The translations under genes were made by a program, and so were the position numbers. A stretch of 37,461 nucleotides of DNA from a virus. Lineage: Duplodnaviria > Heunggongvirae > Uroviricota > Caudoviricetes. Within the stretch, counting starts at the first letter, position 1. Every line of letters starts with the position of its first letter. This document shows, one piece after another, positions 12,129-35,228 of the stretch. The notes under the pieces are model-generated. The model had not been told where the DNA came from. It saw only the letters and a program-made list of their open reading frames with translations, and searched no databases. The stretch lies in the IMG/VR virus record IMGVR_UViG_2875703104_000006, one strand, 5' to 3'.

Positions 12129-12159
12129 GGAGTTTACTCACATCTGACAAAATCAATAT

Positions 12160-12420
12160 AAACAGCCCCTCCGGAGAGGGGCTGGAGAGTGGCGCTATGT
12201 GCCATTGCATGGTGCCGGGTGCCTCCCGGTGAATTCAGTACCAGCACCTGAATCCGCGATTATCCCATATACCTACTCGCTGATTGCCCCTCCGCACAGG
12301 GGGATTCACCATGCCAGTTTCTTTTAACAAACTCCCCGCAAACCAGACAACAGTCAACCGCCTGAATTGTGAAGTATTTAAAAATTTCTCCCGCTAACTG
12401 ATACCCGGCTAACAGTCTGG
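12160..12420. repeat. Copy 1 of a roughly 250-bp repeat family containing the perfect palindrome AGCCCCTC-cgga-GAGGGGCT
   Basis: Near-identical to 17082-17335 and related to 16595-16800. Confidence 0.6.
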
Positions 12421-12575
12421 CGTTTTCTTTTTCAGCAACGGGAAAGCAACAACCACCACACCCGCCACCAGCACACCGTCAGCCAGCACTGACATTATCC
12501 GGCTGCTGCAATGCCACTCACAAAAACAGTAAGCAATCACTTTTTACCGTAACAAGTGATAATCCAGATATGTAT

Positions 12576-12929
12576 CTACCCCAGATGAGTAATCCGAAGT
12601 TCATCCATACCACAGGTACTGGCTATTCTGTTGTACTCCTGAACAAGAGCAAATAATTCTGAATTAGCAACCATGAACTCATCGCAAACCCTCTGTATAG
12701 CATCACTATTCAGAATAATAACGTCTCTTCCCGAAAGACGATCAGGAGTACAGAACAAAACTGTCAAACGGCTGAAGGCCTTTGCTCGTCCTGCATTGAC
12801 TATATCAATACGCTGCCTAAGGATGAAACACCCCGACGCCTCATCAATATTCACTCTACCCACACCATATGAATGATAAATATTTAATGCTGAAAAAACC
12901 ATTAGACCGTATAACAAACACTCAATCAA
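12576..12929 (-). CDS. Hypothetical 117-aa ORF at the position equivalent to TerB (and to stx in Stx phages) in the decayed module copy
   Basis: ORF with hydrophobic N-terminus MIECLLYGLMVFSALNIY; lower GC than surroundings; no obvious SD; coding status uncertain. Confidence 0.3.
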   Translation of the reverse strand: MIECLLYGLMVFSALNIYHSYGVGRVNIDEASGCFILRQRIDIVNAGRAKAFSRLTVLFCTPDRLSGRDVIILNSDAIQRVCDEFMVANSELFALVQEYNRIASTCGMDELRITHLG

Positions 12930-13042
12930 TACTTAACAGAACTTTTATTTTTGACAAACATAAAATATTTTCAACAATATCCTGAGCCAGGTATATTTCA
13001 GTATAAGGCTCTGCCGGAAGGAATCTGGAAGAATGAATATAG

Positions 13043-13116
13043 CGCGCTGTACTGGATTCGAACCAGTGACCGATTGCTTAGAAGGCAATTGCTCTGTCCG
13101 GCTGAGCTAACAACGC
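13043..13116 (-). tRNA. argO: tRNA-Arg (anticodon UCU)
   Basis: Cloverleaf readable by eye: 7-bp acceptor stem GCGTTGT/ACAGCGC, anticodon loop CTTCTAA, T-loop GGTTCGAATCC; end coordinates approximate. Confidence 0.8.
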
Positions 13117-13129
13117 TGAATACCGATAA

Positions 13130-13210
13130 TGGACCGCCATCGGGGACCCGCCCCCGCACCAACAACCCTGTTATCGTGTCGTCTGCTCTTCCTGATAAGC
13201 TAATGGCGGT
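13130..13210 (-). pseudogene. Degenerate tRNA-like sequence at the position of tRNA-Arg(UCG) in the other cluster
   Basis: Acceptor ends (accgccat...atggcggtcca) conserved with 18195-18271 but D-arm and T-loop disrupted. Confidence 0.35.
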
Positions 13211-13216
13211 TTGTGA

Positions 13217-13292
13217 TGGTGGCCCTTGCTGGATTTGAACCAGCGACCTGGCGATTATGAGTCGCTCGCTCTCACCACTGAGCTAAAGGGCC
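13217..13292 (-). tRNA. ileZ: tRNA with anticodon CAU (Met, or Ile2 if lysidine-modified; ileZ-like)
   Basis: GGCCCTTTAGCTCAGTGGTGAGAGC...anticodon loop CTCATAA...GGTTCAAATCC...GGGCCACCA with encoded CCA. Confidence 0.8.
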
Positions 13293-13337
13293 GGGAGCAG
13301 AATAATAACGGTCCGTAATTAATTCCGCAATAAAAAA

Positions 13338-13435
13338 CCCGCTCGGCGGCGGGTTGTAGAAACTCTTCTAACGCCAGGCATAAAAAGCCCATTGTTATGA
13401 CGAATTTACCACAGATTCCGGAAAAATCAACCTTG
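13338..13435 (-). promoter_or_regulatory. Late promoter PR'-like (-35 TTGATT, -10 TAAATT), Q-utilisation region and tR'-like terminator downstream of Q copy A
   Basis: Minus-strand sequence TTGATTtttccggaatctgtggTAAATTcgtcataacaatgggc resembles lambda PR' and its early transcribed region; followed by hairpin CCCGC-n6-GCGGG plus T-run at 13338-13353. Confidence 0.55.
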
Positions 13436-14267
13436 TTACCTAGTTACCTTTTTTAACTGCCGCTCAGCCCATGCTTCTTCAATATCAAACCGGGTCACCA
13501 GCGCATCATAGAATTTCTTAACTGTTTTTTCCCATGACGCGCGTGTTATCTGGTTTGTCACCTCGCATATAGCATTAAATGCCTCCGTTGATGGTAGTCT
13601 TTCATAGCCACGACCACCACAACGCTGGCAGTCTCTGATAACAGGCATACCACGTTTTACCGACTCTTCACGATGAATGGCGACACCACGCCCACGGCAA
13701 TCCTTACAGGCGGTGGAAACCTCACCCTTTCCGCCACACTCCGGACAGGCAACTTTTACCACCTCCCTGACTTTTTTCCATACCACGTTTTACCGACTCT
13801 TCACGATGAATGGCGACACCACGCCCACGGCAATCCTTACAGGCGGTGGAAACCTCACCCTTTCCGCCACACTCCGGACAGGCAACTTTTACCACCTCCC
13901 TGACTTTTTTCCATTCTTCCCAGTAAGACGAATACACACCTTTCGTACACTTTGCCCATACCGGCGGCTTACCATCCGGATACTGGACCTTGTTTGTAAA
14001 AACTACGCTTTCAATAAATTTTTCCCCATAGCAACAAGGGCACTGCTTTTTACTCGCTGCGCTGCGGGCATAATCCTCAAAAGCGTACGAAGCCATAATG
14101 CGCATCACTACCGGTTTTATTTCTGCCGGAAGTTTTCTCAACGCCGCCACACGATCGCACCGACTGAGTGCATAATCTGCCAGTAATTCTGTTGCCCGCG
14201 CCCTGTCATTCATACTGATGCCCATTTTCCCCAGTCCATTCCTGCCGCTGGCGGCTTTTTTTATCAT
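13436..14267 (-). pseudogene. Q: Antiterminator Q, copy A: native N-terminus replaced and frame broken by a 133-bp exact tandem duplication
   Basis: Q-like sequence with zinc-binding CPECGGKG...CKDCRGRG; duplicated 133-bp units at about 13648-13780 and 13781-13913; 5' end abuts the nanS-p 3' end. Confidence 0.75.
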
Positions 14268-16375
14268 GCCGCGATGTCCGCGTTGTTCACTTCCACCTTC
14301 ACACTGTCAATCAGCAGCGTATATGTCGCCGCCTTTGATATGCCTGTCAGTTGCAGTTTGTCCGCCGCCCCTGATGCCGGAGATTTCACCAGTGTGAACG
14401 GCGTCCCCCGTTTCTCATCCAGTACCGGCGTCACCTGAATGCTGTTGTTTCCGGCAAACTCAAAAGCCAGTGTGTGCCATCCGTTATCAAAGACCCCGAA
14501 CGTNTCCAGCTTCGCATTCGGCTTCTTGTGGTGCATCGCGTTCAGGTTCGTCGCATCCGTCTGCAGNAAGAAGGACATCAGCATGTCGTTGCCTTCCTCT
14601 GCCAGCGTCACTCCCTCCGGCAGGGACGACAACTGCCAGTAAATGCCCAGGGCAAACTGATTCGGCACCAGTGAACCCGGCAACTTAAACCGTACGCTCA
14701 CACGTCCCCCCTTCTTCAGTAACTCCACTCCCTGTCCGGCTGCATCATGCTCCAGAAACCAGATGTGGTTTTCCGGTTTATTCAGTTGCAGGGCCTTACC
14801 TCCCGTAGCCCCCGCATCACTGACCACCGCTTCAGCAATGTTTTTGTTAACATTGTCTCCGCTCGCCGGTTTGTGATAATAGCGCCAGCCCTGTGATGCC
14901 AGGTCTTCGCCGGACGCCAGCAGACTCATCAGGGTTCGGTTACTGACCGGGGCTTCCGGCTCTCTCTCCGTACCTTCACCGGAAGGTCCGGTGGGCTTCA
15001 CCGTATCAGGCTGTTTTCCGGTAATGAATTCAGCGTTTCTCCCGGCATGCACAAGAATCGCCGTTGCCAGACGGTCGGAAATAATCCCACGACGTGCCCA
15101 TGATCCAAAATGCGTTTTACGGTCNGCCGTCGTCCAGGTTTTGGCGTCCGTTCGACCACCGGCTCCGTAATACCCAATATCCGCAACATCCGGATCTTCT
15201 GACGGCTCGTTGGTACCCACATTTCGCCCGTTTTCATCCGTCATAAACGGCACAAAGAAGATTTTTTTTGCGGATTTCGTCTTGTATGCACCATACACCG
15301 CATCGTATTGCGAAGAATAAGTCTGCTTCCAGTAGTAGGTCGTGTCGCCACAAATCCAGGGAACCGATGACGGAGAGCCCCCGAGACACTGACCTCCGAA
15401 TTCCGACAGGTCAGAACGATATTTTTCCACCATGGAATCAAACAGCCCCGGCTGNGTGGCGTATGCACCCTGTTTCAAATCAAACTCGCCCTGCATCCAG
15501 ACCACTGCAAGCAGAATATTTTTAGGGTTGGCCTTCAGTGCGGCCTGAGTACGGGTAAGCAGGTCCTTGTACAGTGGCTTATCTACACCCCAGCGTGCCG
15601 AGGTCTCGCTTGCGCCGGTGGATTCGCTGAAGGTACCTTCATCGCCCGCCAAAAATGCAGAACCACCACGGCAGCACGGAACCAGAAGAATACCGGCATT
15701 CGCCGGAATAAACGGCAACAATTTCTTCGCGATATGTAATCCCTGCCCCACGCATCCATACTGAGCTGCNCTGGCTTTCGGGTGTGAAAACTTACTCAAA
15801 TCCTGAACATCATGCAGGCAGTGGTCCGCAGGAATAATGTCATTGTAGTTACAGNACGCACCACCCGGCGTGACAGTGCTGCGACGCGCCAGCTGTTTAA
15901 TACGCGGGTCCGGACGGTCATATGTCTCCGGCAGCGGAAGCCCTTCACCATACGCCATACCGTTTGACTGCCCGGCCAGGGCAACAACAAAGTAATACTC
16001 CGGGTTGCTGGTGGTGCTGATAACTGCGCCTTCTCCATCCGACGGCTTCACCACCACAGGTGTGGTGACATCACCTTCCGCCGCAATGGCCTGCATCAGG
16101 GTATAAGGCGTGATGGCCACCGGACTGCCAAATGGCTGCCACCCCTCCTTCAGTTTTTGTGTCAGTCGTTTCGCAAGGTCTGACGGCGATGCCGCCCTGA
16201 CAACATCATAGTGTTTNNNNNNNNNNNNNNNNNNNNNGGCCTGCATCAGGGTATAAGGCGTGATGGCCACCGGACTGCCAAATGGCTGCCACCCCTCCTT
16301 CAGTTTTTGTGTCAGTCGTTTCGCAAGGTCTGACGGCGATGCCGCCCTGACAACATCATAGTGTTTAAATGCCAT
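14264..16375 (-). CDS. nanS: NanS-p-like sialate O-acetylesterase (DUF1737 N-terminal domain plus SASA-type esterase domain); contains a duplication/gap artifact
   Basis: N-terminus MAFKHYDVVRAASPSDLAKRLTQKLKEGWQPFGSPVAITPY and GQSNGMAYGEG motif; 129-bp duplicate around N-run 16217-16237 plus single Ns. Confidence 0.75.
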   Translation of the reverse strand: MAFKHYDVVRAASPSDLAKRLTQKLKEGWQPFGSPVAITPYTLMQAXXXXXXXKHYDVVRAASPSDLAKRLTQKLKEGWQPFGSPVAITPYTLMQAIAAEGDVTTPVVVKPSDGEGAVISTTSNPEYYFVVALAGQSNGMAYGEGLPLPETYDRPDPRIKQLARRSTVTPGGAXCNYNDIIPADHCLHDVQDLSKFSHPKAXAAQYGCVGQGLHIAKKLLPFIPANAGILLVPCCRGGSAFLAGDEGTFSESTGASETSARWGVDKPLYKDLLTRTQAALKANPKNILLAVVWMQGEFDLKQGAYAXQPGLFDSMVEKYRSDLSEFGGQCLGGSPSSVPWICGDTTYYWKQTYSSQYDAVYGAYKTKSAKKIFFVPFMTDENGRNVGTNEPSEDPDVADIGYYGAGGRTDAKTWTTXDRKTHFGSWARRGIISDRLATAILVHAGRNAEFITGKQPDTVKPTGPSGEGTEREPEAPVSNRTLMSLLASGEDLASQGWRYYHKPASGDNVNKNIAEAVVSDAGATGGKALQLNKPENHIWFLEHDAAGQGVELLKKGGRVSVRFKLPGSLVPNQFALGIYWQLSSLPEGVTLAEEGNDMLMSFXLQTDATNLNAMHHKKPNAKLXTFGVFDNGWHTLAFEFAGNNSIQVTPVLDEKRGTPFTLVKSPASGAADKLQLTGISKAATYTLLIDSVKVEVNNADIAA

Positions 16376-16594
16376 GAATCCTCCCGGCCGGGATAATATT
16401 GTGAGTAAAATAAGGAGCGGGCTGAAGTCCGGAAGTTACAGGACAATGGCAGAAGAGAGACGACAGCCCGCAATTCGAAAAAGACCGCGCAGTTGCGCAG
16501 CCTTATGAATTCTGGTTAAAATCCATTCGATTATAAAAATGTATATCTCATGCTGTTGCCCGAACCCACTCGGGCTTTTTTTGCCCACAAGAAA

Positions 16595-16800
16595 GCCCCT
16601 CCGGAGAGGGGCTAAAGCCGCGTATCTGTATCATCATGCACATGGTGCCGGGTGCCTCCCGGTGAGTTCAGCCCGGTGCCACTAAACCCGCGTCATTCTC
16701 GTTTTGATAATCAGAGATTATACCGTCACCAGTCGCCCCTCCGCTCAGGGGGATTCACCATGCGAAATTTTTTTAACAAATGCCCAGTCTGACAGGCAAC
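16595..16800. repeat. Diverged copy of the hairpin-containing repeat family
   Basis: Shares AAAGCCCCTCCGGAGAGGGGCT, ggtgccgggtgcctcccggtgagttcag and cccctccgc(a/t)cagggggattcaccatg segments with 12160-12420 and 17082-17335. Confidence 0.55.
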
Positions 16801-17081
16801 TGTCAACTTACTGAATTGTGAGCAACATAGCATTTAACGGGGAACCTGTTTTCTGCAGTAAAAAGGCCCACCGGAGCGGATGGGCCTGGAAGGATAGCGG
16901 TCATGTGATGCCGGTTTCCCGGTAACTCAGCACCGGTATCTGAGTCAACGTTTTCTCTACTGGGTCATTTCCGATACGCCCTGCCTGCTGACAGGCTTTC
17001 ATCACATCTGAAAATATAGCACCCTGACTGATACTGTAGTACCTAAGGTTCCAGAAACTGTGATGTATCCGGCACAGAAAA

Positions 17082-17335
17082 GCCCCTCCGGAGAGGGGCT
17101 GGAGAGTGGCACTATGTGCCATTGCATGGTGCCGGGTGCCTCCCGGTGAGTTCAGTATCAGCACCTGAACCCGCACAGAAAGGATAAGGGTCGGTGACAA
17201 AACACCAGTTGCTGATTGCCCCTCCGCACAGGGGGATTCACCATGCCAGTTTCTTTTAACAAACTCCCCGCAAACCAGACAACAGTCAACCGCCTGAATT
17301 GTGAGGTATTTAAAAATTTCAACGGGTAACTGATA
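17082..17335. repeat. Copy of the hairpin-containing repeat family, immediately downstream of the small membrane gene
   Basis: Near-identical to 12160-12420. Confidence 0.6.
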
Positions 17336-17340
17336 CCCTG

Positions 17341-17493
17341 CTAATCGCCTGATGCTTTCTTTTTCAGCAACGGGAAAGCAACAACCACCACACCCGCCAC
17401 CAGCACACCGTCAGCCAGCACTGACATTATCCGGCTGCTGAAGTCCACCATCACCACCAGAAACAGCAGGAGCGCAACCACAGCCAGACGCAT
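17341..17493 (-). CDS. Small hydrophobic protein (50 aa)
   Basis: MRLAVVALLLFLVVMVDFSSRIMSVLADGVLVAGVVVVAFPLLKKKASGD; two predicted TM segments; a 5'-truncated copy lies at about 12425-12510. Confidence 0.45.
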   Translation of the reverse strand: MRLAVVALLLFLVVMVDFSSRIMSVLADGVLVAGVVVVAFPLLKKKASGD

Positions 17494-17501
17494 TTTTACC
17501 G

Positions 17502-17933
17502 TCACAGATGATTCTCCAGACGAAGGCCCAGAACACCGGCAATCTCTTCCAGCACCTTGCGCTCTTCCGGCTCTATTTCGCCGTCTGCTTCGGCAATGGC
17601 CACCGCCACATCCAGCACGTCTTCCGCTTCACGCGTATCGTGTTTCACATCCTCGATCTCACGTAACGCCGCACGACGACCAATTTTAAAGTTCGTATCC
17701 AGCTGACCGATAATGGTTGCGCTAATCGCATTAATTTCTGACGTAAACGCGGACAAGGTGGGCTGGTTACGTAATACCTGTTCGATCTTCGCTTTCTCGG
17801 AAGCCTCACATTCACCATCGGCATAAGCCACCAGGTATGCAGCGTTAATCACTGCCTGTGCCAGATCGCGTTTTTCAAACTTTTTAATTTCCGCAGACGC
17901 TCTGCGGGTTTTCTTTTTGAAGATTCCAAGCAT
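17502..17933 (-). CDS. TerB-like domain protein
   Basis: Start MLGIFKKK with SD AAGGAA; acidic helical protein LAQAVINAAYLVAYADGECEASEKAKIEQVL...AVAIAEADGEIEPEERKVLEEIA resembling TerB-family proteins by recall. Confidence 0.5.
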   Translation of the reverse strand: MLGIFKKKTRRASAEIKKFEKRDLAQAVINAAYLVAYADGECEASEKAKIEQVLRNQPTLSAFTSEINAISATIIGQLDTNFKIGRRAALREIEDVKHDTREAEDVLDVAVAIAEADGEIEPEERKVLEEIAGVLGLRLENHL

Positions 17934-18106
17934 TGTGACGTTCCTTTGGGTGGGTGAGCCAACGCCCGGGAGCGATCTGCCCACAGAGAAAGTCACACTG
18001 ACCACTCCGTAAGCTCACCCCCGAAAGGCTCTGTGGTTGATATGCGCCGGGCGTGGCGCGGATACAAAAAAGGCCCGCAAAAGCGAGCCGGGAAAAATAA
18101 GTCTGG

Positions 18107-18180
18107 CGCGTTGTACTGGATTCGAACCAGTGACCGATTGCTTAGAAGGCAATTGCTCTGTCCGGCTGAGCTAACAACGC
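18107..18180 (-). tRNA. argO: tRNA-Arg (anticodon UCU), second copy
   Basis: Near-identical to 13043-13116. Confidence 0.8.
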
Positions 18181-18194
18181 AGAATGCCGATAAA

Positions 18195-18271
18195 TGGACC
18201 GCCATCGAGGACTCGAACCCCGCGCAACCAGCTTCGAAGGCTGGCGCTCTATCCCGATGAGCTAATGGCGG
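18195..18271 (-). tRNA. argN: tRNA-Arg (anticodon read as UCG; argN-like)
   Basis: CCGCCAT TA GCTC ATCGGGATA GAGC G CCAGC CTTCGAA GCTGG ... CGGGG TTCGAGT CCTCG ATGGCGG T CCA; all four arms pair. Confidence 0.75.
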
Positions 18272-18280
18272 TATGTGATA

Positions 18281-18356
18281 TGGTGGCCCTTGCTGGATTT
18301 GAACCAGCGACCTGGCGATTATGAGTCGCTCGCTCTCACCACTGAGCTAAAGGGCC
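18281..18356 (-). tRNA. ileZ: tRNA with anticodon CAU (Met/Ile2; ileZ-like), second copy
   Basis: Identical to 13217-13292. Confidence 0.8.
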
Positions 18357-18396
18357 GGGCGCAGGATAATAACGGTACGTAACTAATCCTGCAATA

Positions 18397-19455
18397 TCAT
18401 CCGTTCTGACTGGCTAAATCCTGAACTTCCCTGACCGTCTGTTCAAAACGTTCAGTCTCCAGCTCAACGCCTGTAGCACGACGCCCCAGCGCCATCGCGG
18501 CTTTGACTGTCGAACCCGACCCCATGAAGAAATCTGCAACCAGGTCACCCGGACGACTGCTCGCACTGATTATCTGCTGCAGCATTTCTGCCGGTTTTTC
18601 GCACGGATGTTTCCCGGGATAGTACTGCACCGGTTTATGCGTCCACACATCCGTGTACGGCACCTGCGCCGTCACGCCAAAATACCGCCGCAGATGCTTA
18701 TATTCACTCTGCAGTTCCGCATACTGCCGGTTCAGTGAAGTATACGTCTCCAGCAGCTGGTGGTGGGGCTTTTCCAGTTCACCCCGCTGATGCTTCTCTT
18801 CTGCCACCCGGGCAAACAGCGCCTGTAATTTCAGATAATCACTTTCGTTCGGCAGCTGCCACTGACTGGCACTGAACCAGTGCGACACCATGTTTTTCTT
18901 TCCTGTGGCATCCACTATCTGTTTTGCCGTTATCCCCAGGGCAGCGCGCGCATCACGAAAGTAAGCAATCAGCGGGGCCATCACATGCTGTTTCAGTGCC
19001 CTGCCCTTCGCCTCATACCCGGCATCTTTCGGACGATACGGCCCCTGATAATGTTCCGCGAACAGAATGCGCTCTGTGGCGGGGAAATACGCCCGCAGGC
19101 TTTCCTTGTTGCACCCGTTCCAGCGTCCGGACGGCTTTGCCCAGATAATATGGTTCAGCACACTGAAGCGTTCACGCATCATGATTTCGATATCAGATGC
19201 CAGGCGATGACCACAGAACAGGTAAAGACTTCCGGCAGGTTTCAGCACCCGCCAGAACTGCGCCAGACACTGGTCCAGCCACTTCAGGTAATCATCGTCG
19301 CCCTTCCACTGGTTATCCCAGCCCTCAGGCTTCACTTTAAAGTACGGCGGGTCCGTGACTATCAGGTCAACAGAATTTTCGGGTAACGACCGGATAAATT
19401 CCAGGCAGTCGGCGTTGATTAACTCACAACTGGATATTTTTACAGTATTAAGCAT
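18397..19455 (-). CDS. DNA methyltransferase (N6-adenine or N4-cytosine, beta class)
   Basis: Motif IV DPPY near the N-terminus (LIVTDPPYF) and AdoMet motif I near the C-terminus (DFFMGSGST). Confidence 0.8.
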   Translation of the reverse strand: MLNTVKISSCELINADCLEFIRSLPENSVDLIVTDPPYFKVKPEGWDNQWKGDDDYLKWLDQCLAQFWRVLKPAGSLYLFCGHRLASDIEIMMRERFSVLNHIIWAKPSGRWNGCNKESLRAYFPATERILFAEHYQGPYRPKDAGYEAKGRALKQHVMAPLIAYFRDARAALGITAKQIVDATGKKNMVSHWFSASQWQLPNESDYLKLQALFARVAEEKHQRGELEKPHHQLLETYTSLNRQYAELQSEYKHLRRYFGVTAQVPYTDVWTHKPVQYYPGKHPCEKPAEMLQQIISASSRPGDLVADFFMGSGSTVKAAMALGRRATGVELETERFEQTVREVQDLASQNG

Positions 19456-19605
19456 GGATCATTAAACCTGTCTCTGATAGGCTCATTCTGCTTTTGCGCA
19501 AAGCAGTGGGCCTGAGGTTTGCTTGTGATCCAGACGCATGAGCAGATGGCTGGTGAGTGCCCCTAACACCCACCAGCCGCCCATTTACCACAAATAAAAA
19601 AGCCT

Positions 19606-19803
19606 TCAGGACTGAAGGCGTCTGTAACAACCAAACTGATAGTCTGCCAGACCCGCCATAACCAGCTGGGTCAGTATTAACTGGCAGCGTTCGCGTGAAA
19701 GGTAAGTATTCTGCGCTATCTCCCCGACTGTCGCCGGTTCGGTAACGCTTAATTCATTAAACACCACTCTGGCGGTTTCTGTCATATCCTGCTGTTTTAG
19801 CAT
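19606..19803 (-). CDS. Hypothetical small protein (65 aa) downstream of tR'
   Basis: ORF from MLKQQDMTE...; weak SD. Confidence 0.3.
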   Translation of the reverse strand: MLKQQDMTETARVVFNELSVTEPATVGEIAQNTYLSRERCQLILTQLVMAGLADYQFGCYRRLQS

Positions 19804-19924
19804 GTCTTTTTCCCTTTTCCGGTTAACGTGACACACCAATAACTCTTGTCGAAAAAGCCAGCAAGCTGAAAGACAGGTATTCACCGCCACCAGCGCGTTT
19901 ACTGTACTGACGCGATTTCAGTCA

Positions 19925-20029
19925 TAAAAAACCCGCCAGGCGGCGGGGTGTAAAAAATCTTCTAACGTCAGGCATAAAACGCCCATCGTTAGAGCAAATT
20001 TACCACAGATTCGGGAAAAATCAACAACA
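19925..20029 (-). promoter_or_regulatory. Late promoter PR'-like (-35 TTGATT at 20019-20024, -10 TAAATT at 19997-20002) with Q-utilisation region and tR'-like terminator hairpin, downstream of Q copy B
   Basis: Minus-strand TTGATTtttcccgaatctgtggTAAATTtgctctaacgatgggc; hairpin CCCGCC-n4-GGCGGG plus T-run at about 19931-19948. Confidence 0.6.
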
Positions 20030-20984
20030 CTATCGCGTTACCCTCTTTAACTGCCGCTCCGCCCATGCCTCTTCAATGTCAAACCGAACCACCAACGTAT
20101 CGTAAAAGCGTTTCACTGATTTTTTCCACGTATCAAGCGTGATAGCACTCGTCACTTTGCATATGGCATTAAATGCCTCCGTTGATGGCAGCCTTTCACA
20201 GCCACGACCACCACAACGCTGGCAATCTCTGATAACAGGCATACCACGTTTTACCGACTCTTCACGATGAATGGCGACACCACGCCCACGGCAATCCTTA
20301 CAGGCGGTGGAAACCTCACCCTTTCCGCCACACTCCGGACAGGCAACTTTTACCACCTCCCTGACTTTTTTCCATACCACGTTTTACCGACTCTTCACGA
20401 TGAATGGCGACACCACGCCCACGGCAATCCTTACAGGCGGTGGAAACCTCACCCTTTCCGCCACACTCCGGACAGGCAACTTTTACCACCTCCCTGACTT
20501 TTTTCCATTCTTCCCAGTAAGACGGATACACGCCTTTTGTGCACTTTGCCCACACTGGTGGCTTACCATCCGGATACTGGATCTTGTTTGTAAAAACCTC
20601 GCTTTCAATAAATTTTTTTCCGTGACAGCAGGGGCACTGTTTTTTGCTCGCCGCGCTACGGGCATAATCTTCAAACGCATACGAAGCCATAATGCGCATC
20701 ACTACCGGTTTTATTTCTGCCGGAAGTTTTCTCAACGCCGCCACACGATCGCACCGACTGAGTGCATAATCTGCCAGTAATTCTGTTGCCCGCGCCCTGT
20801 CATTCATACTGATGCCCATTTTCCCCAGGAACGCAGAAAACCCCATCTCAGCCCGATTCTGTGTCATGCCCTGCGCGGCCATCACATCAGTGATACTCAG
20901 CGCATCTTTTGACGTTGAGGCCGATGCATCGGTCAGGCCAGGGGATTTTGGGGAGTAGTATTTCGGTAAATCTTCCAGTTTCAT
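20030..20984 (-). CDS. Q: Antitermination protein Q (lambda Q family), copy B; frame interrupted by a 133-bp exact tandem duplication
   Basis: N-terminus MKLEDLPKYYSPKSPGLTDASA...DVMAAQGM resembles the lambda Q N-terminus; zinc-binding Cys cluster; duplication splits the gene into ORFs 20316-20984 and 20030-20380. Confidence 0.8.
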
Positions 20985-22415: not shown

Positions 22416-22700
22416 TTACCTCCAGATGCGTTGCTGGAATGTGCGGGACGGACGCGGTGGGCGTTCGGAATAAGGGAGTCTGACGTAGATTATCCAGTGA
22501 CGATAATCGAGGGTGAGGGCTTTCCTAAACTCATATCCACGTCTGCGGTAGTTATGAATCAGCCATTCGGCCTGTTCTTCAGTACAGGGATCGTGCTGAT
22601 ACCAGTCATATTTGAATGCGTGAGAACGCCACCCGTGCCTGCTGGCAAAGGCAGAATCAGAATTGCGAAATTTGAAATTATGCGCCATTGTCATCTCCAA
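22416..22700 (-). CDS. Hypothetical nin-region protein (94 aa)
   Basis: ORF abutting the downstream gene; Trp/His/Arg-rich; no motif recognised. Confidence 0.4.
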   Translation of the reverse strand: MEMTMAHNFKFRNSDSAFASRHGWRSHAFKYDWYQHDPCTEEQAEWLIHNYRRRGYEFRKALTLDYRHWIIYVRLPYSERPPRPSRTFQQRIWR

Positions 22701-22747
22701 TGGCGCTGCAGGTTGCCAGTTGTTCAGGCTGGCTCACGTATTATAAC

Positions 22748-22969
22748 TTATTCCCGAACTACCTTGAAACCGAGTCTTTCCAAGTATTCAATGAATGCCT
22801 CAACAGATAACACTACATGATCATCAGGAATTAACGCTGTGTAGGTAATACCCCCATTCTCAACGCGCACAGCATAGAGGCCATCTTCACTAAAAATTTC
22901 ACGTAATTCTTCGATTTTCATCAACAGAATCCTTCCAGATAAATAGCACTCCCCCTGTTCGGGGTCCAT
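22748..22969 (-). CDS. Hypothetical small protein (73 aa; possibly 57 aa from MKIEEL)
   Basis: ORF only. Confidence 0.35.
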   Translation of the reverse strand: MDPEQGECYLSGRILLMKIEELREIFSEDGLYAVRVENGGITYTALIPDDHVVLSVEAFIEYLERLGFKVVRE

Positions 22970-23058
22970 CCCTCTTCTCCCTGCGCGCTACTTAAGTATT
23001 TTTGATTCTATTCTGGCACCGTCCAAAACTTCAAACACGTTGAAAATAAAAACAAAAA

Positions 23059-23074
23059 ACCCGCCGAAGCGGGT
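23059..23074 (-). terminator. Rho-independent terminator (ACCCGC-cgaa-GCGGGT plus T-run on minus strand) 5 nt downstream of the HTH-peptidase gene
   Basis: Perfect 6-bp stem, tetraloop, 6 T's after it on the coding strand; identical core to 24894-24909. Confidence 0.6.
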
Positions 23075-23078
23075 ATAC

Positions 23079-24185
23079 TCAAACAATCTGGAAAATATTT
23101 CTTGGATTTGTAATAGGTCTGTTGATGGAGAACAACTCACGAATTAAATCTTGGCTCAAGCCAGTTTTCATAAGAATTCTTAGCCAGGTTGCATCATCCA
23201 GCATTTCAATCGCCTCGGCCAGCATGCCGGGTTCTTCAGGGCGCAAAAGTTCATCACCAGGTTCAACTCTCGTATACCCTCTGGAATTAAGATGCATATA
23301 GCCAGTTCTTGCCTGTTCCTGGGTCAATAAGCCTAATGCGCTGGCTCGATAAATACACATTTTAAGGCTGATTTTCCATCTAAGTTTAAATTCAACCAGA
23401 GCATTCCAGTCGAATTGCTTACCTCGTATTCGTGGAAATTCTTTAATGAAAGATAACCTGGGAACTAATAAGGCGCTCGAAAAGTGATCGGCTTGTGATT
23501 CCGTAAGTTTATCACCTGTCGTTATGCCCTCATGCATTACTAAATGCCCTAATTCATGACCTAAATCAGAGCGAAATCTACATATGCTTTTTTTAACATT
23601 GTTCCTGATGATAACAGGCCTGTTATTGTGAACAGTAAAAGCATCAACACGATCATCGACTCCCGTAACATGCGCAACGATTACCCCTAAACTCTCCGCC
23701 AATTTAACCATTGATGATATAGGGCCAAGACCTAAATTCCAGGCACGGCGACAATCTTCTGCCACTCGCTCAATATCATTCGGAGTAAGTAATTCAGCCC
23801 CTGGGTGCTCCGGTATGTTAACGTCAGGAAATTCGATTTCACCTTCAACAGCAGAAATTATAATATTAAGAATCTCAGCCCTGGCCAATACACTATTAGT
23901 CAGCGTTTGAGTCCTGGACTTCTTACTCCGAAAATGGCAGACATCACTTTCCAGAGCGTATTTTCGTTCAGTAAAAAGAAAACTGGACTTAATCATAAGC
24001 GCTGAAGATATTAACTCAAGACATTGCTCCGATGGCCTGCACCCCTTCTCCAGTTTGCTAACGAATTGCTTTGTCTTGCCAATTTTTTCGGCTAACTCTT
24101 CACAAGAAAGCCCAACAGCCATTCTCGCTAGTTTGAGCTTATCACCCCGATACTCAGTGAAGTTATTCACCTGATGTTCCATCAC
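23079..24185 (-). CDS. Fusion of N-terminal XRE-family HTH and ImmA/IrrE-type zinc metallopeptidase domain (COG2856-like)
   Basis: HTH region LKLARMAVGLSCEELAEKIGKTKQFVSKLEKG; peptidase motif DLGHELGHLVMHEG (HExxH). Low GC relative to flanks. Confidence 0.75.
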   Translation of the reverse strand: MMEHQVNNFTEYRGDKLKLARMAVGLSCEELAEKIGKTKQFVSKLEKGCRPSEQCLELISSALMIKSSFLFTERKYALESDVCHFRSKKSRTQTLTNSVLARAEILNIIISAVEGEIEFPDVNIPEHPGAELLTPNDIERVAEDCRRAWNLGLGPISSMVKLAESLGVIVAHVTGVDDRVDAFTVHNNRPVIIRNNVKKSICRFRSDLGHELGHLVMHEGITTGDKLTESQADHFSSALLVPRLSFIKEFPRIRGKQFDWNALVEFKLRWKISLKMCIYRASALGLLTQEQARTGYMHLNSRGYTRVEPGDELLRPEEPGMLAEAIEMLDDATWLRILMKTGLSQDLIRELFSINRPITNPRNIFQIV

Positions 24186-24813
24186 TGCTCACATCCAAAT
24201 CTTTATCCTTCGTACGCCGACGAAGAGGCACCTTATTAATCTCCGCTTCGTCAGGGAGTGTGTTATAATCAAGAGGCATAAGCGGCATCGATGCTGTAGA
24301 TTGATGAGAAACTATACTAATCTGAGCACCATAAGTATTAAATCCAACAAGAGCTACCTCCCAACGAGGCAGTGTGGACTCTAATTCACCATCGCCCTCT
24401 TCGGATAAAAAAGGCTCAGCTATGACTCGCCATGTAATATCTTGCTCAGCCTCAACATCACCAAACAATGAGAGCTGCTCATACTCTACTTTATTTCGAC
24501 GCAGACGATGTTTCTTTTTGGGGTTATTAATGCAATCTTTGGTAAATTGTAGCGGAACTTTATTTAAAGCAACTACATAGTCCAACCCCTTGGAAATCAT
24601 CTCAAGGCCAGGAATTGCATCTTCATTTTGAATAAGATGATTTCTGACCCAATCATAAGCCCTTACACCTTCAGACCAGTTGCTGTCTAATGCGTGCTTA
24701 TGATAGTACAGCTGCTCAAGTACGTTAGCGATCTCCGCCAACAAGTGGCGAACATAGTTTTCAGCAAGATAAGGTTGAAATTCCCAACAAGGAGCTAACT
24801 GATTTTCATTCAT
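24163..24813 (-). CDS. Hypothetical 216-aa protein, first gene of the two-gene cassette; 3' end overlaps the HTH-peptidase start by 23 nt
   Basis: Clean ORF, low GC, candidate promoter (TTGACA) in 24814-24890; no recognisable motif. Confidence 0.55.
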   Translation of the reverse strand: MNENQLAPCWEFQPYLAENYVRHLLAEIANVLEQLYYHKHALDSNWSEGVRAYDWVRNHLIQNEDAIPGLEMISKGLDYVVALNKVPLQFTKDCINNPKKKHRLRRNKVEYEQLSLFGDVEAEQDITWRVIAEPFLSEEGDGELESTLPRWEVALVGFNTYGAQISIVSHQSTASMPLMPLDYNTLPDEAEINKVPLRRRTKDKDLDVSSDGTSGE

Positions 24814-24893
24814 TTCAAGTTTCGCTTTTTTTAGAATTCGTAAACCACATATTTTCGCATTTTTCTATTTTTGTCAACCAGACTAATGCAAAA

Positions 24894-24909
24894 ACCCGCC
24901 GAAGCGGGT
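24894..24909 (-). terminator. Rho-independent terminator (ACCCGC-cgaa-GCGGGT plus T-run on minus strand) downstream of hok and upstream of the cassette
   Basis: Same 16-nt hairpin as 23059-23074. Confidence 0.6.
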
Positions 24910-24978
24910 TAAGTGCGGGTGCGTTGAGGATGCCTGGCACATCAGAGGTGGCGGGAGATTACTCCCCCGCCGGGTCTC

Positions 24979-25134
24979 TTACTCCTCAGGTTCGTAAGCT
25001 GTGAAGACAGCGACCTCCGTCTGGCCGGTTCGGATTCGTACCTCGCAGAGGTCTTTCCTCGTTACCAGTGCCGTCACAATGACGGTTAAACAGATGACGA
25101 TCAGGGCGATTAGCATCGCCTTTTGCTGCTTCAT
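24979..25134 (-). CDS. hok: Hok/Gef-family type I toxin (51 aa)
   Basis: MKQQKAMLIALIVICLTVIVTALVTRKDLCEVRIRTGQTEVAVFTAYEPEE: single TM plus conserved Hok C-terminal region; in-frame upstream extension consistent with a mok-like leader. Confidence 0.8.
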   Translation of the reverse strand: MKQQKAMLIALIVICLTVIVTALVTRKDLCEVRIRTGQTEVAVFTAYEPEE

Positions 25135-25425
25135 AGCCTGCTTCTCCTTGCCTTTCGGCACGTAAGAGGCTAACCTACGTGTGTAGAGCATAGATATGGC
25201 CTCAGATTAATGTTAAGCGTCTTGCAGGACGCGTAATGTTAACTGGGGCTTTTCTCTATCTGCCTTTTGGTGTTCATGCCTGAGACAGATAGCCTCAAGC
25301 ACCCGCTGCAATTCTACTTAACTCTCCTTTTCCCGCAAACCGTTTTTATCCCCAGCGGCAAATCGAATACACCACCAGCGCCACCGCCATCGCAATTCCT
25401 ACCGTTGTTAATGCTTCAGGCCAGG

Positions 25426-27350: not shown

Positions 27351-27497
27351 TACCGCCCTTTCGGACGGCCTCCTGATGTTCTGAGGGTGCAGAAATCCCT
27401 CCGGTTAAGGATTTGATTTTATTTACAGTGCTAAATTTAATTATTCAGTTCTGGATTTTGTCGCCCTGCATATCCGCGCTTTCGCGTTACGCTCAAT

Positions 27498-27797
27498 CTA
27501 AATTAACTTTTCTATATTTTTCCGCCTTTCCTGTTCCTCCTGGCGCAATAGCCTTACATCATCTGCCAGTCTGGTTTCTCTTTTCGCCACAGAGAGCATC
27601 CAGTCAAACGGCTCCACAACTGCACCGCAGATTTTACAGCGGACCTGACGCTCTTTTTCGTCAACCCGAACAGAGGCGTGATGACAATATGGTCTTTCCG
27701 ATGGCTCATAAAGAAAATTAACCTGATTACGAGGGTCATCCTCTTTTACCGGAAATAAAACGATATTGCTTAACTCATCCTCTGGTTTTATTTCCAT
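27498..27797 (-). CDS. Cys/His-containing 99-aa protein, copy 1 of a tandem gene duplication
   Basis: YCHHASVRVDEKERQVRCKICGAVVEPFDW suggests a zinc-ribbon-like motif; protein identical to copy 2. Confidence 0.55.
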   Translation of the reverse strand: MEIKPEDELSNIVLFPVKEDDPRNQVNFLYEPSERPYCHHASVRVDEKERQVRCKICGAVVEPFDWMLSVAKRETRLADDVRLLRQEEQERRKNIEKLI

Positions 27798-27939
27798 GCT
27801 CCTCTCCTNCGGCCTCCTGATGTTCTGAGGGTGCAGAAATCCCTCCGGTTAAGGATTAAATTTTTAACAGAGCTAAATTTAATTATTCAGTTCTGGATTT
27901 TGTCGCCCTGCATATCCGCGCTTTCGCGTTACGCTCAAT

Positions 27940-28239
27940 CTAAATTAACTTTTCTATATTTTTCCGCCTTTCCTGTTCCTCCTGGCGCAATAGCCTTACA
28001 TCATCTGCCAGTCTGGTTTCTCTTTTCGCCACAGAGAGCATCCAGTCAAATGGCTCCACAACTGCACCGCAGATTTTACAGCGGACCTGACGCTCTTTTT
28101 CGTCAACCCGCACAGACGCGTGATGACAATATGGTCTTTCCGATGGCTCATAAAGAAAATTAACCTGATTACGAGGGTCATCCTCTTTTACCGGAAATAA
28201 AACGATATTGCTTAACTCATCCTCTGGTTTTATTTCCAT
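27940..28239 (-). CDS. Cys/His-containing 99-aa protein, copy 2
   Basis: Differs from copy 1 at three coding positions, all synonymous. Confidence 0.55.
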   Translation of the reverse strand: MEIKPEDELSNIVLFPVKEDDPRNQVNFLYEPSERPYCHHASVRVDEKERQVRCKICGAVVEPFDWMLSVAKRETRLADDVRLLRQEEQERRKNIEKLI

Positions 28240-30179: not shown

Positions 30180-30845
30180 TCAAATAAAACCAGCTGCCTT
30201 CCGGCGTTCGTATTCCTGTTTCAGCCGTTCAATTGGCGTTGGCCCTTGCGGGTGTTTCGCCCCTTCCAGTTGTCGTCGCACTGGCGGAACACTCATCCCG
30301 TTACCAACATGCTTTGCCCATTTCGTCAGTTGCCGTTCCGCAAGTCGTTTTAACTCACCCTGCGTCATCTGGCGCTCAATCCCTCTGGTACGCATTTCGA
30401 GGCAGATGTGGTACAGCACAGGCTGAGGCCACGGATATTTGTCGCTTCCGTCATATCGCCAGGACTCATCACGCCAGCGGCGGTACTCCTCCATCACAGC
30501 ATCCACCGTCAGGCCAAATGGATTGGCCCCGCTTTCTGAAATCAGCGCCACAAACTCAGCCAGGTCCGGAGGCCATGTTTCACCCGCCCGGCAGCGGTCC
30601 ATGCACTGGCGGCAGACCTGTCGGATTTGCTGCTCAGTCATCGCGCCAATCTGTGCAATCCAGAGCTTCGAAGGTGCGGCCCCGTTCTTCTGGGTCCAGC
30701 GGTTCGAATAAACCTCCCCCATGAGTTCCCACAGCTTCCAGACCGTTTCCGTCGCTGATAAATCCGTTTTCACGTTCCCACTGCTCACGTGCTGCCCGAA
30801 TTTCCTGAACTGCCCGTGATGCGGTGCCACCTGGTGCTGCTGCAT
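30180..30845 (-). CDS. Replication protein P-like (helicase loader family); true start probably internal
   Basis: C-terminal two-thirds align by eye with lambda P (YPWPQPVLYHICLEMRTRG...TQGELKRLAERQLTKW vs lambda ESYPWKSNAHYWLVTNLYQNMRAN...). Track start overlaps the O-like gene by about 210 nt. Confidence 0.55.
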   Translation of the reverse strand: MQQHQVAPHHGQFRKFGQHVSSGNVKTDLSATETVWKLWELMGEVYSNRWTQKNGAAPSKLWIAQIGAMTEQQIRQVCRQCMDRCRAGETWPPDLAEFVALISESGANPFGLTVDAVMEEYRRWRDESWRYDGSDKYPWPQPVLYHICLEMRTRGIERQMTQGELKRLAERQLTKWAKHVGNGMSVPPVRRQLEGAKHPQGPTPIERLKQEYERRKAAGFI

Positions 30846-31674
30846 GGTTTACCCCCTTGCTGACTGGCTTAACCTGCGCCCTGACGTGATTTACGTGACG
30901 GGCGAATTTCTGCTCCCACTGAACCTGCGTGAAAACTTTCCCCTCCGCTGCCCAGTAGTCCCGGAAAGCGGCAAGTTCAGCAGGTGTAAATTCCGGCTCC
31001 GGCAAAGCCATCCCCCACAACGCAGCCCGTCGTCGAAAATCCGGCGACGGATGCCAGTCATCGACCATCGGAAATTTCCCGATGGGTTCGCTCAGTCCAT
31101 CCAGGGATGCAGGTTCTGCTGCCTGCAACGGCGTACCACTCGACTCACTGGTCGGAGCACTCTCGCGCACGTGCGCGTTATGTGTGGGGTTTAATTCTTT
31201 ATCTGTATCTTTATCTGTCGTGACTCGTCGTGACATGTCGTGACATATGCGTGACTCGTCGTGACACCCCTCATTCTGTTTTCGTAATTTTTCCCTCTCG
31301 CGCTGCGCTCTCTTGCGCTCTGCCGGGGATTTCGCGGTTTGTGAAACGTTGCCATTGTCCTCTTTCAGTACCTGGCGTTTTTCCCATCCGGTGATTAAAT
31401 CTCCATCAAGTACCCGCCCCTGCATTGCCTGTAAAATTGAATCAATTACTTCTTCCGTCACATCAAGCGCACTTGCTAAATCTTCCGTCGTGACATCAAT
31501 GTGACCACGTAGTGACACGCCGTGACATGTCGTGACATTTCGTGACGCGCTCACCAGAAGGTGGATATACACTGCCATCACTGTTGCAATTGGCTGCCCT
31601 GACACCCTGGCAATTGTTCGCCACTTAGGGTCATTTGGCATGTCATGCCATAATCTGAGCCAGGCGTTAGCCAT
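30634..31674 (-). CDS. Replication initiator (O-like; DUF1376/YdaU-like N-terminus, DnaT-like C-terminal region) containing two iteron clusters
   Basis: N-terminus MANAWLRLWHDMPNDPKW; ATG at 31672-31674 preferred; 5' end lies inside a 151-bp duplication artifact (N at 31711), so the exact start is uncertain. Confidence 0.6.
   Translation of the reverse strand: MANAWLRLWHDMPNDPKWRTIARVSGQPIATVMAVYIHLLVSASRNVTTCHGVSLRGHIDVTTEDLASALDVTEEVIDSILQAMQGRVLDGDLITGWEKRQVLKEDNGNVSQTAKSPAERKRAQREREKLRKQNEGCHDESRICHDMSRRVTTDKDTDKELNPTHNAHVRESAPTSESSGTPLQAAEPASLDGLSEPIGKFPMVDDWHPSPDFRRRAALWGMALPEPEFTPAELAAFRDYWAAEGKVFTQVQWEQKFARHVNHVRAQVKPVSKGVNHAAAPGGTASRAVQEIRAAREQWERENGFISDGNGLEAVGTHGGGLFEPLDPEERGRTFEALDCTDWRDD
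31217..31264. repeat. Iteron cluster 1: five GTCGTGAC-type repeats at about 10-bp spacing (candidate ori)
   Basis: Repeats begin at 31217, 31227, 31237, 31249, 31257. Confidence 0.6.
31487..31546. repeat. Iteron cluster 2: six (C)GTGAC(A) repeats at 10-11-bp spacing
   Basis: GTGAC at 31490, 31501, 31512, 31522, 31532, 31542. Confidence 0.6.
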
Positions 31675-31898
31675 ACTCACCTCTTCTGATACCGAATCTT
31701 TTTACTCACAANGGTGGATATACACTGCCATCACTGTTGCAATTGGCTGCCCTGACACCCTGGCAATTGTTCGCCACTTAGGGTCATTTGGCATGTCATG
31801 CCATAATCTGAGCCAGGCGTTAGCCATACTCACCTCTTCTGATACCGAATCTTTTTACTCACAAATTGCCGGAAGTGATCCGGTATGAATATTGCGAG

Positions 31899-34955: not shown

Positions 34956-35228
34956 CATACGCTTAAGTGACAACCCCGCTGCAACGCCCTCTGTTATCAA
35001 TTTTCTGGTGACGTTTGGCGGTATCAGTTTTACTCCGTGACTGCTCTGCCGCCCTTTTTAAAGTGAATTTTGTGATGTGGTGAATGCGGCTGAGCGCACG
35101 CGGAACAGTTAAAACCAAAAACAGTGTTATGGGTGGATTCTCTGTATCCGGCGTTAATTGTTAACTGGTTAACGTCACCTGGAGGCACCAGGCACCGCAT
35201 CACAAAATTCATTGTTGAGGACGCGATA

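Follow-up and report, generated by a model that had tools for sequence, protein, structure and literature searches.

A cassette after the hokD terminator of a lambdoid Escherichia coli prophage very probably encodes a catalogued RosmerTA toxin-antitoxin module

We analysed a two-gene, minus-strand cassette at positions 23,059 to 24,909 of the IMG/VR virus record IMGVR_UViG_2875703104_000006, a 37,461-nucleotide (nt) stretch of lambdoid prophage DNA referred to below as the window. The cassette is very probably a RosmerTA toxin-antitoxin module, of the subtype represented by the PADLOC models PDLC03929 and PDLC03943, carried as an optional moron and expected from its family to act in phage defence through abortive infection. 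An earlier reading of the sequence, here called the original prediction, had proposed an undescribed defence or toxin-regulator module. That part is superseded, as both proteins match catalogued PADLOC RosmerTA models and the subtype is by this assignment already known. The cassette itself is a discrete 1,835-bp insert that directly follows the hokD terminator, within the nin region of this lambdoid prophage of E. coli.

Identity and inheritance of the gene pair

Searching the gene pair against a defence catalogue, as had been proposed along with the original prediction, returned RosmerTA matches for both proteins in PADLOC. The 216-amino-acid (aa) product of the upstream gene matched the RmrT model PDLC03929 over its full length (positions 5-195 of the 198 in the model, E = 4.6e-25), and the 367-aa product of the downstream gene matched the RmrA model PDLC03943 over its full length (E = 6.2e-105) together with thirteen further RmrA models. 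Weaker matches of the larger protein were to CapP and CapH, regulators of the cyclic-oligonucleotide-based antiphage signalling system (CBASS), with the RmrA model scoring 349 bits versus 52 bits for capP. The smaller protein also matched PHROG 5786 (E = 8e-85). Neither Pfam nor NCBIfam returned a match for it, in keeping with the earlier remark that it carries no recognisable motif. For the larger protein, Pfam identified HTH_3 and Peptidase_M78, and its sub-threshold NCBIfam match to "spr1629 family repressor/antitoxin" links RmrA to a pneumococcal toxin-antitoxin system.

By family convention, the upstream gene is assigned as the toxin, rmrT, and the gene for the helix-turn-helix (HTH) peptidase as the antitoxin, rmrA. 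The proposed pairing of a sensor protease with an effector was therefore sound as to class, a peptidase-regulator accompanied by an effector, and is backed by the PADLOC matches; which gene encodes the effector had been left undecided, and the family convention assigns that role to the upstream gene. The verified RosmerTA pair of E. coli OLC-716 maps to PDLC03935 and PDLC03949, so that the model numbers of the toxin and antitoxin are offset by 14 in that pair as well as in the window pair. This equal offset is consistent with the window pair being a different, cognate and already catalogued subtype. Two other memberships were considered and rejected. PD-lambda-2 has three components, namely a HigB-like toxin, an Xre-peptidase and a P4-antitoxin-like protein (Vassallo 2022), whereas the window operon has two genes, no HigB-like gene and no PADLOC match to PD-lambda-2. 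Membership in the CapP/CapH (CBASS) group was likewise set aside; the cassette has neither CBASS genes nor element-regulatory genes attached.

Open reading frame (ORF) calls and RefSeq annotation agreed on the two overlapping minus-strand genes that had been described at the outset. The rmrA ORF extends from a GTG start at 24185 to 23079 and would encode 368 aa. RefSeq places the start one codon later, at an ATG at 24182, giving the 367-aa protein WP_000401168.1. The overlap between rmrT and rmrA is accordingly 20 nt when counted from the ATG and 23 nt from the GTG. Identical genes are carried by E. coli 042 (EC042_RS07045/07050), and in RefSeq their products are annotated as "hypothetical protein" (WP_001004956.1) and "helix-turn-helix domain-containing protein" (WP_000401168.1).

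The extent of the toxin family depended on the type of search. A word-indexed search with RmrT returned only relatives from Enterobacterales at 53% identity or more, and 69 matches, nearly all of 190-225 aa, came from an exhaustive profile search that covered 1.84 billion representative proteins. We aligned 58 full-length members, with a mean column identity of 26%, and every one of the 58 matched PDLC03929. The alignment contains conserved blocks (PWE, GD..W..GxR.Y, VP.RF, E..Q..L and WR...E), within which only E110 is nearly invariant. A narrower RmrT alignment, used as the query in a locus search, identified 5 genomic loci. In every locus with downstream sequence available, an HTH-Peptidase_M78 gene lies directly 3' of the RmrT homologue. 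The RmrT-then-RmrA order was found in E. albertii, Providencia, Proteus, Xenorhabdus and an Enterobacteriaceae metagenome-assembled genome (MAG), as well as in metagenomic contigs, Vibrio fluvialis and a second E. coli allele. The 216-aa gene is hence conserved and co-inherited with the peptidase gene, where the original prediction had named a failure of conservation or co-inheritance as evidence against itself.

RmrA consists of an N-terminal XRE HTH domain, an M78 (ImmA/IrrE) zinc-peptidase domain and a C-terminal helical region, which bears out the fusion of an XRE HTH to an HExxH peptidase read earlier from the sequence. Its zinc site is formed by HELGH, at residues 209-213 of the 367-aa protein, plus E228. 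H209, E210, H213 and E228 were invariant in 29 of 29 homologues, down to 28% identity, which argues for an active RmrA peptidase under selection.

The V. fluvialis locus (ABKWLR010000001.1, 8001-9691) encodes a 199-aa toxin and a 361-aa RmrA separated by a 5-bp spacer; these are 27% (RmrT) and 47% (RmrA) identical to the window pair. It adjoins a reverse transcriptase and AAA-ATPase pair, which is retron-like, and a phage-type integrase, giving it the look of a defence island. Another family member adjoins an OLD-type ATPase.

Insertion at the hokD terminator

The window holds exactly two copies of the 16-nt hairpin ACCCGCCGAAGCGGGT, at 23059 and 24894, so the original prediction was right that the same hairpin stands on both sides of the cassette. 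Both copies were terminator-like on the minus strand by intrinsic-terminator scoring. The exact repeat that brackets the cassette is longer, at 20 nt (AAAAACCCGCCGAAGCGGGT), and contains the hairpin; about 6e-4 such 20-nt repeat pairs would be expected by chance in 37 kb. We joined positions 22600-23074 to 24910-25300 into a synthetic junction representing the empty site and searched for it in complete E. coli genomes. Matches to the junction query ran through it without a break, at up to 97.9% identity, and in 67 complete genomes at least 80% of it is covered. An example is strain 025542-1, in which a single hairpin lies between both window flanks and hokD is followed directly downstream by nin-region genes. 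Because empty-site genomes keep a single hairpin after hokD, the hairpin is best understood as the native hokD terminator, duplicated at insertion. The T-run 3' of the downstream hairpin is the same as the T-run after the hokD hairpin in cassette-free genomes. The cassette was present, with at least 80% of the query covered, in 237 of 5,426 complete E. coli genomes, mostly at 99% identity or more, and its carriers include strains 042 and ABU 83972. A tblastn search of plasmids returned just two matches, near-identical and from E. coli.

We also considered whether the hairpin belongs to the cassette family. This was rejected because the hairpin is missing from the orthologous cassettes of Providencia, Proteus, Xenorhabdus and the Enterobacteriaceae MAG; at the second E. 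coli allele it is present after hok only. The description of the cassette as a terminator-bracketed moron consequently stands as to independent acquisition, given the 67 empty sites with a single hairpin, and fails as to the hairpin travelling with the cassette family. The neighbouring gene had been correctly recognised as hok: it is hokD by Pfam (HOK_GEF) and RefSeq annotation, and a sok RNA lies beside it at 25129-25304 on the minus strand (Rfam gathering threshold). The low G+C content noted originally was reproduced, at 41.5% for the cassette versus 49.5% for the remainder of the window. Values just as low occur elsewhere in the window, for example at 26.0-28.0 kb, and low G+C content alone is therefore not distinctive of the cassette.

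Insertions of related pairs were observed elsewhere. The second E. coli allele (CP157162.1, 4364-6122) is a divergent allele of the same RosmerTA subtype, with 41% (RmrT) and 58% (RmrA) identity to the window pair, and is found in a different lambdoid prophage, across hokD from the position seen in the window. Cargo is therefore accommodated on either flank of hokD. In two further loci, L010 (3890, 5806) and L011 (856, 2772), a distant RmrT/RmrA pair is bracketed by the GC-rich hairpins CCCGCCGAAGCGGGG and CCCGCTACGGCGGGG. The prophage that carries this pair is P22-like or lambdoid and has it between the early-left genes and an S24-type repressor gene, making it a second case of a moron bracketed by terminators.

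The hokD terminator and rmrT are separated by 80 nt, which contain a perfect TTGACA followed by the GCGAAAATAT block. We aligned the region upstream of rmrT from six loci in five genera, comprising E. coli (two alleles), Providencia, Proteus, Xenorhabdus and the Enterobacteriaceae MAG, and found the block GGTTGACA...GCGAAA.AT to be conserved in all six. A consensus promoter scan missed the cassette promoter because its -10 element is weak. Conservation of the block across genera suggests that the cassette brings its own promoter, predicted to be of the sigma-70 type. Two 28-nt direct repeats, reading TGGTT(G/T)AC...GCGAAA on the minus strand, span this rmrT promoter, including its -35 element, and the 5' untranslated region. 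The other genera have a repeated TTGAC(G/A)AA...CGAA unit, the second copy of which is upstream of the promoter. It is plausible that the 28-nt repeats are an operator for the HTH domain of RmrA. Coordinates of all cassette features are given in Table 1.

Table 1. Features of the rmrTA cassette and its boundaries, in window positions
Feature	Position	Strand	Details
rmrT (predicted toxin)	24163..24813	-	216 aa; identical to WP_001004956.1
rmrA (predicted antitoxin and autoregulator)	23079..24182	-	367 aa; matches WP_000401168.1
Predicted cassette promoter	24849..24877	-	-35 TTGACA at 24877..24872, 17-nt spacer, candidate -10 AAATAT at 24854..24849, within the GCGAAAATAT block
Candidate RmrA operator, two 28-nt direct repeats	24853-24880 and 24820-24847	-	71% identical, 33-nt spacing
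Upstream hairpin copy, hokD intrinsic terminator and right boundary of the insertion	24894..24909	-	TTTTTG follows on the minus strand; terminator-like score
Downstream hairpin copy (23074..23059) with T-run TTTTTTGTTTTTATTTT, acting as rmrTA operon terminator	23043..23074	-	
Inserted segment, cassette plus one repeat copy	23075..24909		1,835 bp, relative to lambdoid prophages without the cassette

Several other features of the window were recorded. A DicF antisense RNA is located at 35003-35054 on the plus strand (Rfam gathering threshold), and the DicF and sok RNAs together confirm a Qin/Rac-like lambdoid prophage context. The late-regulatory region looks duplicated or mosaic at 12154-14400 and 16528-20510, with two tRNAs at 13043-13292, three tRNAs at 18107-18356, three copies of the STnc100 small RNA (12154, 16583 and 17070), an AsxR small RNA at 16528-16580 and long direct repeats spaced about 4.9-6.6 kb apart. 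Either a prophage mosaic or a neighbouring pair of Q/late-promoter modules may account for this arrangement. At 31207-31256 and 31499-31548, about 290 bp apart, are two clusters that each hold at least 3 copies of a 10-nt iterated unit (GTCGTGACAT-like); they lie inside or beside the ORF at 30634..31680 and resemble the replication-origin iterons of lambdoid O genes. An ambiguous base (N) occurs near 27809, in one of the two copies (27357-27718 and 27801-28160) of a repeat of about 440 bp.

The toxin and its characterised relatives

RosmerTA was described as a system that defends against phages, with E. coli OLC-716 as the verified source and an rmrA deletion that could not be transformed (Millman 2022; 10.1101/2022.05.11.491447). 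The window cassette resembles the OLC-716 system in being a two-gene operon with the toxin first, followed by an antitoxin of about 370 aa that combines an XRE HTH with an M78 peptidase and has the same HELGH...E signature. Of the two, it is the OLC-716 system for which phage defence has been demonstrated. A further RosmerTA system, from the Gordonia phage Kita, defends against BASEL phages with a narrow spectrum (PMC10440598). Like the window pair, it is borne by a phage or prophage and relies on an ImmA-type protease antitoxin. Its toxin, RmrT-D5, has transmembrane regions and depolarises the membrane (PMC10440598; NetFlax study). In contrast, window RmrT is acidic (isoelectric point 4.9) and hydrophilic, has no transmembrane segment and reaches a maximum 19-residue Kyte-Doolittle score of 0.84. 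We therefore ruled out a membrane toxin like that of Kita on the grounds of this hydrophilicity and the absence of a hydrophobic segment.

Structure prediction depended on the depth of the alignment. An AlphaFold model of RmrT built from close homologues only was poor, with a predicted local distance difference test (pLDDT) score of 62.8, and was replaced by a confident model built from the 58-sequence alignment (pLDDT 85.9). The latter is predicted to contain two long helices, then a region with a six-stranded sheet and finally a disordered yet conserved C-terminal tail (residues about 175-216). Foldseek searches of this model against PDB and BFVD returned nothing significant, and the RmrT family profile gave only a chance-level match against PDB sequences (E = 0.095). 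One idea within the RosmerTA assignment is that RmrT is a degenerate or atypical nuclease of the PD-(D/E)xK type, degrading DNA or RNA once released. The positions expected for the PD-(D/E)xK motif are not conserved in the 58-member alignment, so a nuclease-like fold is a lead rather than a finding, and we regard such an activity as rather unlikely.

Parallels in gene layout also came from other toxin-antitoxin pairs. On the element MGIVmi1 of Vibrio mimicus, vmi480 encodes a lethal 198-aa toxin and is followed after 5 bp by vmi470, which encodes a 362-aa HTH-Zn-peptidase antitoxin (Luo et al. 2015; PMC4671572). A prophage pair of this type in E. coli E101 makes clpP essential (Rousset et al. 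2021; 10.1101/2020.05.25.114553). Like vmi480/vmi470 and the E101 pair, E101_02645/02644, the window cassette has an upstream toxin gene of about 200 codons without a known domain and then a gene for an HTH-Zn-peptidase antitoxin of about 362 aa. The V. fluvialis member, P0033 (199 aa, 5 bp, 361 aa), reproduces the vmi480/vmi470 layout almost exactly, and the PDLC03929 model has 198 positions, the same as the length of Vmi480. By this resemblance of layout, Vmi480 probably belongs to the window toxin family. We also asked whether the second E. coli allele is the E101 toxin. The E101 toxin has a T46S suppressor and the second allele has N, not T, at position 46, so the two are probably not the same.

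Dependence on the ClpXP protease recurs among these relatives. A pneumococcal pair makes clpX essential, with ClpX needed for toxin removal (PMC9519441), and in three Pectobacteriaceae rmrA and clpX were essential only in the strains carrying RosmerTA (PMC13566846). The dependence on clpP is a feature of the E101 pair and would apply to the window allele by analogy. The window cassette also shares with ImmA/ImmR of ICEBs1, IrrE/DdrO of Deinococcus and CapP/CapH of CBASS an M78 metallopeptidase that works with an XRE HTH. In those systems a separate HTH repressor is cleaved to switch genes on, whereas in the window a single protein combines HTH and peptidase, and its partner is a toxin without an HTH.

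Proposed function and competing explanations

The most likely function, judged from related systems, is that of a type II-like toxin-antitoxin module for abortive infection, carried as prophage cargo. RmrT would be a growth-arresting toxin, and RmrA would neutralise it and probably repress the operon through its HTH domain. As long as the lysogen is uninfected, RmrA would keep RmrT inactive, probably with help from ClpXP, given that related systems render clpX or clpP essential. A second phage infecting the cell might then upset this balance, whether by causing RmrA to be lost or inhibited, by overloading proteolysis, by shutting off host transcription or in some other way. The released RmrT would stop the cell before the phage completes its cycle, thereby protecting the lysogen population and the prophage.

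Several points weigh against this interpretation. Defence, toxicity, autoregulation and ClpXP involvement of the window pair are all transferred by analogy, and in the literature we found no experiment on this pair or on a proven member of the PDLC03929 toxin family. Vmi480 and E101_02645 are tentatively placed in the family by matching anatomy only. Relative to the verified OLC-716 system, RmrA is 29% identical over about 300 residues and RmrT has no detectable similarity (BLASTP E = 7), with the two toxins falling under different models (PDLC03929 versus PDLC03935). Furthermore, a blastn search of the cassette DNA at distant sensitivity against 50,697 deposited phage genomes returned no match. 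The cassette has so far been known only from integrated, possibly defective, prophages.

The same anatomy could serve a pure addiction or stabilisation module that, like hok/sok, retains the prophage or segment and plays no role against infecting phages. The cassette has the makeup of a toxin-antitoxin pair, adjoins another post-segregational killer in hokD/sok, and belongs with related systems for which antitoxin essentiality has been reported (PMC13566846); moreover, the defence role of the window subtype is drawn by analogy. We nevertheless consider this improbable as a complete account, given that the RosmerTA systems of OLC-716 and Kita do protect against phages and that the family members beside the OLD-type ATPase and beside the reverse transcriptase, AAA ATPase and integrase occupy contexts resembling defence islands. 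Addiction and defence are also not mutually exclusive.

The original prediction had likened the peptidase to ImmA/IrrE-type enzymes that cleave a partner repressor, which raises the alternative of an induction switch of the ImmA/ImmR or IrrE/DdrO type, wherein stress-triggered cleavage of a repressor controls prophage induction. RmrA does share its M78 peptidase domain with ImmA and IrrE, and its weaker matches to CapP and CapH point in the same direction. Cleavage of a partner repressor does not fit the gene pair, however: RmrT lacks any HTH or repressor domain, and it is the peptidase that carries the HTH, in cis. Prophage regions that are nearly identical apart from the cassette occur with and without it, its place is the nin region and not the immunity region, and the RmrA models score far above capP. 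Without a separate HTH repressor, and with an optional cassette in the nin region, we rejected the induction switch as very improbable.

Returning to the abortive-infection module, standard defence annotation with PADLOC, and probably DefenseFinder, would already label the pair as RosmerTA. The subtype occurs in common E. coli prophages; what is still of interest about it is the mechanism of the toxin, a possible ClpXP checkpoint and the cargo site at hokD. We tentatively suggest, as a possibility short of an expectation, that the PDLC03929 RmrT family is an effector with a fold and activity new for the toxins of toxin-antitoxin and defence systems, perhaps released through RmrA/ClpXP, and that the hokD flanks are perhaps a dedicated hotspot for allele exchange. 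The precise presence/absence polymorphism at the hokD terminator offers natural isogenic comparisons, and the essentiality of clpX or clpP in related systems suggests that a proteolytic checkpoint may be how infection is sensed.

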